A DNA stretch of 59,824 nucleotides from assembly GCF_003334255.1 (NCBI RefSeq), contig NZ_QOWU01000028.1. One strand, given 5' to 3'. Positions 56,223-57,487 of the stretch are shown in pieces. Made by a program: the position numbers and the translations under genes. The notes beneath the pieces were generated by a model. That model was not told the DNA's origin and made no database searches. It saw nothing but the letters and a program-made list of their open reading frames with translations. How positions within the stretch are numbered: position 1 is the stretch's first letter; each line of letters opens with the position of its first letter. The DNA comes from Escherichia coli. Lineage in GTDB: Bacteria > Pseudomonadota > Gammaproteobacteria > Enterobacterales > Enterobacteriaceae.

Positions 56223-56939
56223 TCACAAGTAGACTACGCTTATCACAGCTTTCCCATCAAGTTCGATTTTTTCTGAACCGCCTAAATCATTCGCGATAGA
56301 TGCGCTCACCTGAAGCGGTATAATGGCGTTCGTTACAGGAGTTGGGGTTGTTTCACCTGGTTTTACAAAGGTGTAATAATAGCTTTGATCGACTGCAAGC
56401 GGATAAGCGGTGAGCGTTTGCCATGCTCTTTTTTGCCCTGTTATGACGGCATCTGCACCTGCTATTGATACAGCTAACGTCTGGCTACCATTGCTGGCAC
56501 TAATGTTGTTGCTATCAATTAACACGGCATAACTACCGATATTTTTATTATCTTTTGTTTTCCCTAAGCCGAATAAGCGCGTTGTCTGGCTAATATAACC
56601 TCCGCCATTTAAGGTATATTTTACACCACTCTGACCCCCACTATCTTTTCCGGTGGTCATACTATCCATTCGTGTATCACGAGCGGTAATCGCAATGCCG
56701 GTAGCGGATTCGCAAGTTATAGTCATATTAATATTACGTGTTCCAATCTGTGTGTAGTGCTGCGTTGAAAGTCTATTGACTGAATGACTACCGAAGTTAA
56801 CAACTCCGCCGTTGCTTAGTATTGGAGTACAAGCTGCAGCTTCCAGAGTCACCTTAACGTCAATTGATACTCTATCAGCGGCTTGCGCTGACATGGCAAA
56901 AAAGGCACTTCCGGCAATCAGTAATTTTACATTGTTCAT
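56223..56939 (-). CDS. yhcF: Fimbrial-like protein (putative adhesin/tip subunit)
   Basis: 238-aa ORF with signal peptide MNNVKLLIAGSAFFAMSAQA; downstream of yhcE. Confidence 0.8.
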   Translation of the reverse strand: MNNVKLLIAGSAFFAMSAQAADRVSIDVKVTLEAAACTPILSNGGVVNFGSHSVNRLSTQHYTQIGTRNINMTITCESATGIAITARDTRMDSMTTGKDSGGQSGVKYTLNGGGYISQTTRLFGLGKTKDNKNIGSYAVLIDSNNISASNGSQTLAVSIAGADAVITGQKRAWQTLTAYPLAVDQSYYYTFVKPGETTPTPVTNAIIPLQVSASIANDLGGSEKIELDGKAVISVVYL

Positions 56940-57487
56940 TTTGCCTCCACCAGGACCGTCAGATTGCCTGTAATATCTGTCATGTCGGTTAGTTCCCCTT
57001 CATCCTTAAAAGCTGGAGCCATTGTCAGTGTGAGGCTAACGCTTTTACCGCTATCAATTACCACTTCTTGACCATTTTGCATAAACACCAGCCAATTATT
57101 GGGGGAAGTACTAATTGATGCTGTTCCTGTGCTGCCCGGATTGTCATTTTTGCCACTGGCTAACGCCAGGTCGAGATTGTTACTACCTGAAAATGCATCG
57201 CTGGCGATCAGATTTAATGAACCATTCGGGCCAAATCCAAATCCGTTGTTGGAAATATTAGCGGTATTCAACTGAACACGAATATGAGCGTCCTGATCGC
57301 ATTGCATTACCAGCGTGATTGTTCTGTCTGCTAATTGTGTTGTTTTACCCCGGTCAACTTGGCGCATGGCAGCACTTCGTTTGCCATAGTCGATATTTTG
57401 TATGCTACTGGAGATATTACACTCTGCCTGAGCGGCCATGGCGAAGTTCAGCAGCAGGCATCCTGTTATTATCCGTTTCATTGGCAC
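56936..57487 (-). CDS. yhcE: Fimbrial-like protein, intact ORF
   Basis: 183-aa ORF with signal peptide MKRIITGCLLLNFAMAAQA; overlaps yhcF start and yhcD stop. Confidence 0.75.
   Translation of the reverse strand: MPMKRIITGCLLLNFAMAAQAECNISSSIQNIDYGKRSAAMRQVDRGKTTQLADRTITLVMQCDQDAHIRVQLNTANISNNGFGFGPNGSLNLIASDAFSGSNNLDLALASGKNDNPGSTGTASISTSPNNWLVFMQNGQEVVIDSGKSVSLTLTMAPAFKDEGELTDMTDITGNLTVLVEAK

Follow-up and report, generated by a model that had tools for sequence, protein, structure and literature searches.

The uninterrupted yhcE gene of an Escherichia coli contig with an IS1-disrupted yhc operon, and its product as a candidate tip module of the Yhc fimbria

We found that yhcE is uninterrupted in the stretch of 59,824 nucleotides analysed here (the window), and that this uninterrupted form is the ancestral allele of a gene that carries an IS5 element in E. 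coli K-12. The cryptic beta-class chaperone-usher operon gltF-yhcA-yhcD-yhcE-yhcF ends with yhcE and yhcF; the assignment of Yhc to the beta clade is taken from the literature (PMC5216030, PMC3559732, PMC3032704). The explanation that we judge the most probable overall, and hold with some confidence, combines an ancestral uninterrupted yhcE, an operon broken by IS1, and a YhcE product that would be a tip pilin lacking a donor strand. The features on which the argument draws are listed here by window position.

56223–56939, minus strand: yhcF, 238 aa, a DUF1120 pilin-like subunit, identical to K-12 yhcF
56936–56939, minus strand: overlap of the yhcE stop and the yhcF start, ATGA, 4 nt, with GGAGG at 56944–56948, 4 nt upstream
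56936–57481, minus strand: yhcE coding sequence, 181 aa plus stop, uninterrupted
57111–57114: empty IS5 target, CTAA on the plus strand and TTAG on the gene strand, gene nt 368–371, codons Ile123/Ser124
57478–57481, minus strand: overlap of the yhcD stop and the yhcE start, ATGA, 4 nt
57478–59747, minus strand: yhcD usher remnant, K-12 gene nt 113–2382, 100% identical, lacking the first 112 nt (start codon and signal peptide)
57485–57487, minus strand: in-frame GTG, only 1 nt after AGGAG, the source of a 183-aa open reading frame
57489–57493, minus strand: AGGAG, Shine-Dalgarno-like, inside the 3' end of yhcD, with 7 nt between it and the yhcE ATG; conserved in both E. ruysiae and E. albertii
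59748–59824, no strand assigned: IS1 end, 77 nt, 100% identical to IS1A nt 1–77, running off the window end

An ancestral yhcE allele with an empty IS5 site

From rrfD through yhcD, the window and K-12 MG1655 are colinear. Positions 1–48865 correspond to K-12 3375001–3423773 at 99.94–99.98% identity, positions 48866–57114 to K-12 3366751–3375000 with two mismatches and one gap, and positions 57111–59747 to K-12 3362919–3365555 with no mismatch. yhcE lies between the usher gene yhcD and yhcF, beside yhcG and the nan operon, in the part colinear with K-12 3362919–3375000. The first end of the window falls in the 5S rRNA gene rrfD and the last in IS1. Because it starts inside rrfD and ends in IS1, the window looks like a probably complete short-read contig with repeats at both ends.

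In K-12, yhcE (b4569) is annotated as a two-piece pseudogene (3365185–3365555 and 3366755–3366929; 371 nt and 175 nt) and carries IS5R (insH10; 1195 bp) at 3365556–3366750. The only product possible from this allele is a 159-aa read-through consisting of 123 native residues plus IS5-encoded residues. In the window the minus-strand frame is open over 56936–57487 and free of IS5-like sequence, and the K-12 IS5R sequence used as a query against the whole window gave no match. The two K-12 alignment blocks that meet in yhcE overlap by four bases in the window, at 57111–57114, and the TTAG read there on the gene strand is present in one copy in the window and in two copies flanking IS5R in K-12. 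At this point the gene strand of the window reads CATCAATTAGTACTTCC, and that of K-12 reads CATCAATTAG, then IS5, then TTAGTACTTCC. The window yhcE is thus the K-12 sequence base for base, minus IS5R and one TTAG. IS5 prefers YTAR targets, and the TTAG in yhcE agrees with this preference. CTAA/CTAG sites have been mentioned for IS5 (PMC11677980).

A sequence-only reading of this DNA, made before our analysis, had claimed that yhcE is uninterrupted here and carries IS5 in K-12, and that the source differs from the K-12 reference allele. The IS5R annotation and the single versus duplicated TTAG confirm the first claim, and the empty site upholds the second. The alignment with K-12 and the search for a 4-bp target proposed in that reading recovered the empty IS5 site with its single TTAG at 57111–57114, and the K-12 reference does not have an uninterrupted yhcE at this position. 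The window has a single empty IS5 site where K-12 yhcE carries IS5, and therefore the source strain is not K-12, yet it is a very close relative (99.94–99.98% identity over 57 kb). An uninterrupted yhcE is the normal non-K-12 allele, and it shows only that the contig is not K-12.

The window YhcE is identical to RefSeq WP_000821351.1 ('YhcE family protein') and to the translation of the joined K-12 fragments. The annotated CDS of strains 300709 and SW071611 encodes the same protein, and the representative of a 737-member cluster (P0001) matches it at 99% identity.

The yhcE coding sequence and its coupling to neighbouring genes

The list of minus-strand open reading frames for this region gives 56223–56939 (yhcF, 238 aa), 56936–57487 (183 aa from GTG) and 57478–59694 (the body of yhcD). 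The sequence-only reading accordingly gave yhcE 183 aa and a 10-nt overlap with yhcD. We found instead that K-12 and RefSeq annotate yhcE as 546 nt and 181 aa, starting from the ATG at 57481. The start region on the gene strand reads ACAGGAGAGTGCCAATGAAA. The arrangement AGGAG-N7-ATG is kept in E. ruysiae and E. albertii, and at the GTG position E. ruysiae has the codon TCT and E. albertii TTT. The real start is likely the conserved ATG at 57481 and not the GTG, and the choice of the longest open reading frame is what produced the spurious 183 aa and 10-nt overlap, because AGGAG-N7-ATG is conserved, the GTG is not, and the annotation gives 181 aa. Longest-ORF starts therefore mislead at yhcE.

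The opposite reading, a 183-aa protein translated from the GTG at 57487 with a 10-nt yhcD overlap in an IS-free window whose operon may be functional, appears highly improbable to us. The GTG is in frame and opens the longest frame, but AGGAG ends 1 nt before the GTG and 7 nt before the ATG, the codon is variable between species, the annotated protein has 181 aa, and the IS1 end at 59748–59824 truncates yhcD.

With the ATG at 57481 as the start, the yhcD/yhcE overlap becomes a 4-nt ATGA. The 4-nt overlap with yhcF that the earlier reading had given stands, also as ATGA, and only its 10-nt overlap with yhcD falls. E. ruysiae and E. albertii keep both ATGA overlaps, and a 4-nt overlap between an usher gene and a yhcE-like gene recurs in distant operons (L012, L014 and L016). 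Because the overlaps and the internal Shine-Dalgarno motifs are conserved, translational coupling of the usher, YhcE and YhcF can reasonably be inferred, as the earlier reading had proposed from the overlaps. A scan of 55950–59824 for promoters and terminators returned no more sites than shuffled sequence.

IS1 at the usher gene and the fate of the locus in E. coli

The sequence-only reading held that the window contains no IS-like sequence. This is not so, as the last 77 nt, at 59748–59824, are nt 1–77 of IS1A, its terminal inverted repeat included. The K-12 match ends at window position 59747, which is yhcD nt 113, and IS1 adjoins there; the in-frame TGA that closes the yhcD frame upstream lies inside the IS1 segment. 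The 77-nt segment has about 72,000 (>70,000) matches across E. coli genomes, at sites that are annotated as IS1 or as IS1 transposase regions. The event at yhcD nt 113 was either an IS1 insertion or an IS1-mediated deletion, the window ending within the element. At the least, IS1 splits yhcD'EF from yhcA, gltF and the operon promoter.

On the evidence of one contig end, the operon thus appears to be broken in the source strain by IS1 joined to yhcD. The Yhc genes in the window are the usher remnant, yhcE and yhcF only, and the intact usher gene needed for assembly is missing, yhcD having lost nt 1–112. A complete set of PapD-like chaperone, PapC-like usher and DUF1120 subunits is found in the K-12, E. 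ruysiae and E. albertii loci. The suggestion of a possibly functional operon in this strain accordingly does not survive the removal of the first 112 nt of yhcD. An IS1 end of 77 nt is easily missed when it lies at the edge of a contig, yet it is decisive for operon function, and as read here it means that the operon of the source strain cannot work.

A search of 5426 complete E. coli genomes found no case of the IS1-yhcD junction in one piece (0/5426). Six matches with at least 80% coverage were considered as copies of the junction and rejected, being different IS1-mediated gltF-yhcA deletions. An exact-protein search with the 738-aa yhcD ORF was uninformative, as the same TTG-start ORF is called in intact loci and in K-12 derivatives.

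The uninterrupted yhcE allele itself is neither rare nor new, and was already described in 2017. The gene is carried by 1142 of the 5426 complete E. coli genomes (about 1141–1153 across searches), always at ≥95% identity and usually at ≥99%, and the yhc locus is missing in about 79% of complete E. coli genomes. The comparison across strains that the earlier reading had called for showed yhcE to be uninterrupted in 783 of the 1142 carriers (783–788 across searches); in nearly all of the remaining carriers the break falls precisely at the K-12 IS5 position, and these are laboratory strains derived from K-12. No divergent yhcE allele turned up in E. coli when blastn was run in distant mode, within the sensitivity of blastn. 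Del Canto et al. (2017) described complete gltF-yhcADEF loci lacking the IS element in phylogroup A ETEC that were adhesin-negative, and hundreds of database matches to intact YhcE (PMC5216030). According to Archer et al. (2011), K-12 is IS5::yhcE and the cluster is missing from strains B, W and Crooks (PMC3032704). The study of Wurpel et al. (2013) had no intact representative of Yhc (PMC3559732).

Several further arrangements of the locus were seen in individual strains. IS3-family elements lie between yhcE and yhcF in strain 300709, and MSI001 shows an ISKpn26-associated loss of yhcD-F. SW071611 and Ec1120 have two distinct IS1-associated gltF-yhcA deletions. IS1 lies within yhcE in strain 1283, BH212 carries IS1 in yhcF plus IS5, and two further copies of the yhc locus (L018 and L020) are rearranged.

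The yhc locus is a frequent IS target, and its low carriage and repeated IS lesions fit with weak selection in E. coli. One could go further and regard yhcE and the whole yhc operon as decaying remnants in E. coli, with yhcE merely not yet struck and its intactness uninformative about function. This agrees with the presence of the locus in only about 1142–1153 of the 5426 complete genomes, with the many independent lesions by IS5, IS1, IS3-family elements and ISKpn26 across strains, and with the suggestion of Wurpel et al. that Yhc is perhaps the remnant of an ancient cluster (PMC3559732). Deletion of the yhc locus in ETEC 100664 also left adherence to Caco-2 cells unchanged (PMC5216030). The comparison between species argues otherwise. 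For E. coli versus E. ruysiae, yhcE has a dN/dS of 0.16 at a dS of 0.66 and yhcF a dN/dS of 0.11 (dS ~0.6 overall), with no indels in yhcE. The gene is 181 codons long, free of indels, in three Escherichia species, and E. ruysiae and E. albertii share the synteny gltD-gltF-yhcA-yhcD-yhcE-yhcF-nan, the gene lengths (181 aa for YhcE, 238–240 aa for YhcF) and the overlaps. Moreover, the YhcE family is kept in other usher operons at 21–30% identity. We therefore consider decay an improbable explanation of the locus as a whole. An open frame of 181 codons would arise by chance from the local base composition with P ~ 3e-5, and because of this and the dN/dS of 0.16, yhcE is evidently a real gene that encodes a protein and that, at least between species, is under purifying selection.

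YhcE as a candidate tip module of the Yhc fimbria

The first 19 residues of YhcE are predicted to form a Sec-type signal peptide (MKRIITGCLLLNFAMAAQA, cleaved before EC). The mature protein begins E-C-N, with an invariant Cys at position 2. The Pfam scan of YhcE gave nothing significant: the match to DUF1120 (PF06551) had an i-E of 0.11 and 13.1 bits over residues 30–70, and there was no match to PF00419. The NCBIfam model PRK15301 matched with an E of 1e-14, but at 54 bits against a cutoff of 226. A PDB sequence search gave no match with YhcE and one chance match only with YhcF. Pairwise BLASTP of YhcE gave an E of 0.017 against YhcF and of 0.22 against GltF, values too weak alone.

An exhaustive search assembled a YhcE family of 174–199-aa proteins at 21–34% identity. 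Across the 27 aligned members only Cys21 and Cys61 are invariant, and in 26 of these proteins the first of the two lies 1–4 residues past the predicted signal-peptidase site. Against the Pfam DUF1120 model, 9 of the 27 members reach E ≤ 0.1 and none (0/27) reaches 0.001. Wherever context is available, the genes of the family lie directly 3' of an usher gene; the usher and yhcE-like genes overlap by 4 nt in two DUF1120-chaperone-usher operons (L012 and L014), and on one short contig (L013) the yhcE-like gene overlaps its upstream gene.

Profile comparison relates this family to the DUF1120 subunits. Aligned by hhalign against 11 DUF1120 subunits of the GltF and YhcF types, the YhcE family matched with a probability of 94.3% and an E of 9.9e-8 over 150 columns. 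The alignment spans the first Cys to the last strand, pairing YhcE Cys21 with YhcF Cys37 and the last strands of both. An AlphaFold2 model of YhcE built from the family alignment is confident and all-beta (pLDDT 88.4, pTM 0.80), and the best Foldseek matches of this model are the CS20 pilin, FimG, the PapG pilin domain, FimF/G and CfaB. The description of YhcE as fimbrial-like in the earlier reading is hence borne out at the level of fold and profile, by hhalign and Foldseek, and not by Pfam.

The DUF1120 subunits have two features that YhcE lacks. In YhcF and GltF, 16–19 residues precede the invariant Cys; in YhcF the extension has 16 residues, ADRVSIDVKVTLEAAA, before ACTP, and shows the alternating pattern of a donor strand. 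The DUF1120 subunits end in VYL, which in YhcF is a C-terminal VVYL. YhcE has neither the N-terminal extension nor the C-terminal Y-L motif. From the profile match and the model, YhcE looks like a remote homologue of DUF1120-type pilins that lacks a donor strand and is predicted to adopt a pilin Ig fold.

Five homologues of 375–394 aa combine a YhcE-like N-terminal half with a YhcF-like DUF1120 C-terminal half. Their N-terminal halves have a Cys right after the signal peptide and match PRK15301 with an E of 1e-17 to 1e-18, and their C-terminal halves end in (I/V)xYL and match PRK15302/3. The segment that joins the halves resembles the DUF1120 N-terminal extension (e.g. SSEINVQASITPIACTP), and one of the fused genes (L016) lies directly after an usher gene with a 4-nt overlap. 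We also modelled an artificial fusion in which the linker DNKQ joins mature YhcE to the N-terminal extension of YhcF. Model confidence rose from a mean pLDDT of 88.4 and a pTM of 0.80 for YhcE alone to 94.0 and 0.88 with the YhcF extension, and the fusion model has a confident extra strand; the output consists of pLDDT and secondary structure only, with no scrambled-peptide comparison.

Taken together, the data suggest a mechanism in which YhcE would be exported by Sec and form a Cys21–Cys61 disulfide. The YhcA chaperone would hold YhcE, a presumably incomplete Ig fold, by donor-strand complementation, and YhcE would be delivered first to the YhcD usher. The next subunit, YhcF or GltF, would fill the groove of YhcE with its N-terminal extension. 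YhcE itself, which lacks such an extension and so has no strand to donate, would be confined to the distal end of the fibre. YhcE and YhcF would then correspond to a two-domain tip subunit such as FimH, PapG or CfaE that is split into two proteins, with YhcE as the functional counterpart of the receptor-binding half of the two-domain tip adhesins. That YhcE is a putative distal (tip) module of the Yhc beta-fimbria acting in this way is a proposal to which we give close to an even chance. Against it stand the unchanged Caco-2 adherence after deletion of the locus in ETEC 100664, the weak Pfam and PRK15301 scores, the missing C-terminal Y-L motif, and the low carriage and repeated IS lesions of the locus in E. 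coli. Slightly more tentatively, the YhcE family may be an unrecognised distal (tip or cap) module of beta-class fimbriae, derived from DUF1120 by loss of the donor strand, coupled to the usher, and either split from a YhcF-like partner, as in Escherichia, or fused to it, as in other proteobacteria. We found no paper combining DUF1120 and usher.

We considered YhcE as a PapH-like terminator and rejected this reading, as terminators have to donate a strand and YhcE lacks the N-terminal extension for it. An intact yhcE could also encode a periplasmic or outer-membrane accessory of the Yhc pathway, such as an assembly initiator, an usher-gating factor or a regulator, that is never polymerised. 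The function of YhcE has been called unclear, with 'no predictable function' (PMC5216030), and an accessory would be in keeping with the lack of the N-terminal extension, of the C-terminal Y-L motif and of a Pfam Fimbrial match; the gene is tightly coupled to that of the usher in all operons seen, which could equally mean that YhcE is a stoichiometric usher partner. An accessory role is nevertheless unlikely in our view, given the full-length profile homology to DUF1120 subunits, the pilin domains among the best structural matches, the natural fusions of a YhcE-like module to a DUF1120 pilin domain, and the better model obtained with the YhcF donor strand supplied.

A putative tip pilin partnered by YhcF and lacking its own donor strand gives a testable role to a gene that IS5 destroyed in K-12. 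If the tip model is true, IS5 specifically removed the adhesive tip in K-12 and was also polar on yhcF. Attempts to express Yhc fimbriae would preferably use an intact natural allele, not that of K-12. The tip model, if true, also contradicts the published view, with which it disagrees, that beta-fimbriae lack tip subunits (PMC5216030, citing Nuccio & Baumler).

Compared with K-12 MG1655, the window has the same sequence on either side of the insertion point and the same neighbours, yhcD and yhcF, and differs in that K-12 has the 1195-bp IS5R and two copies of TTAG. With the intact phylogroup A loci the window shares the uninterrupted yhcE and the 717-bp form of yhcF; those loci hold a complete gltF-yhcADEF, whereas in the window yhcD is cut at nt 113, and yhcA and gltF lie outside it. 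The DUF1120 subunits YhcF and GltF have in common with YhcE the Cys...Cys pair, the motifs (I/V)(D/N)(Y/F)G and FG(F/L)G, and a C-terminal G-x-hydrophobic strand. They are 238–254 aa long and have the N-terminal extension and the terminal VYL, whereas YhcE has 181 aa and neither feature. Tip subunits lacking a donor strand include the two-domain FimH, PapG and CfaE and the single-domain caps AfaD/DraD and AggB. FimH, PapG, CfaE, AfaD/DraD and AggB have no sequence similarity to YhcE detectable by the PDB sequence search. The FimH and PapG adhesins hold their two domains in one polypeptide, whereas YhcE of E. coli is a single domain, and the fused arrangement is found only in its distant homologues.

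Truncation of the usher gene and the contig ends

The usher gene yhcD is truncated at a junction with an IS1 end, which adjoins the gene at its nt 113. The same junction was found in none of the 5426 complete E. coli genomes searched. The features at the two ends of the window are as follows.

59748–59824: IS1 end, the last 77 bases of the window, 100% to IS1A nt 1–77
1–356 (region): rrfD, the 5S rRNA gene, inside which the window begins; followed by the tRNA-Thr gene thrV and then rrfF

The presence of repeats at both ends suggests that the window is an entire contig of a short-read assembly.

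The annotated start of yhcD differs between sources: RefSeq gives a 793-aa product from an ATG lying 20 nt past yhcA, whereas the gene caller of the large protein collection begins at a TTG, codon 56 (window 59694), and yields 738 aa. This TTG start is also called in intact loci and in one K-12 derivative (L018–L023, comparison loci; 3001–5217).

The yhc locus of other strains carries many independent IS lesions (strains 300709 and MSI001, L002 and L003; the IS1 deletions of SW071611 and Ec1120, L010 and L011; the rearranged copies L018 and L020; search matches H1 and H101). These lesions include IS3-family elements between yhcE and yhcF, a yhcD–F deletion with ISKpn26, loss of gltF–yhcA by IS1 in two different deletions, IS1 in yhcE, and IS1 in yhcF.

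YhcE-like domains and divergence of yhcE

Natural two-domain proteins join an N-terminal YhcE-like domain to a C-terminal YhcF-like DUF1120 domain, with an Nte-like strand (N-terminal extension) between them (homologous proteins P0056 and P0060; also P0049, P0066, and P0070). Their genes lie at the following positions.

L016 3554–4738: two-domain fusion gene, preceded by an usher gene that it overlaps by 4 nt
L017 1151–2323: two-domain gene

The 2742-aa protein P0047 contains seven stretches resembling YhcE residues ~70–155, and the YhcE-like fold may thus also serve as a repeated module of large surface proteins.

When E. coli is compared with E. ruysiae (window 53515–57481 versus L006 and L008), synonymous divergence reaches 0.66 for yhcE, 0.62 for yhcF, and 0.53 for nanQ, far above the 0.18 of nearby nanK, a hint of a segment that is older or was inherited separately.

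Comparison with K-12

Judged by sequence, the source strain is very closely related to K-12. In the 8.2-kb yhcE–dcuD stretch only three positions differ, window 49254, 52134, and 55734: the nanR–dcuD spacer has a 1-bp deletion, and nanT and yhcG have one substitution each. The tldD–yhdP spacer holds a repeat array.

31382–31796: tandem REP-like array, 91-bp unit, 4.5 copies

This spacer is ~92 bp, or one repeat unit, longer in the window than in K-12.
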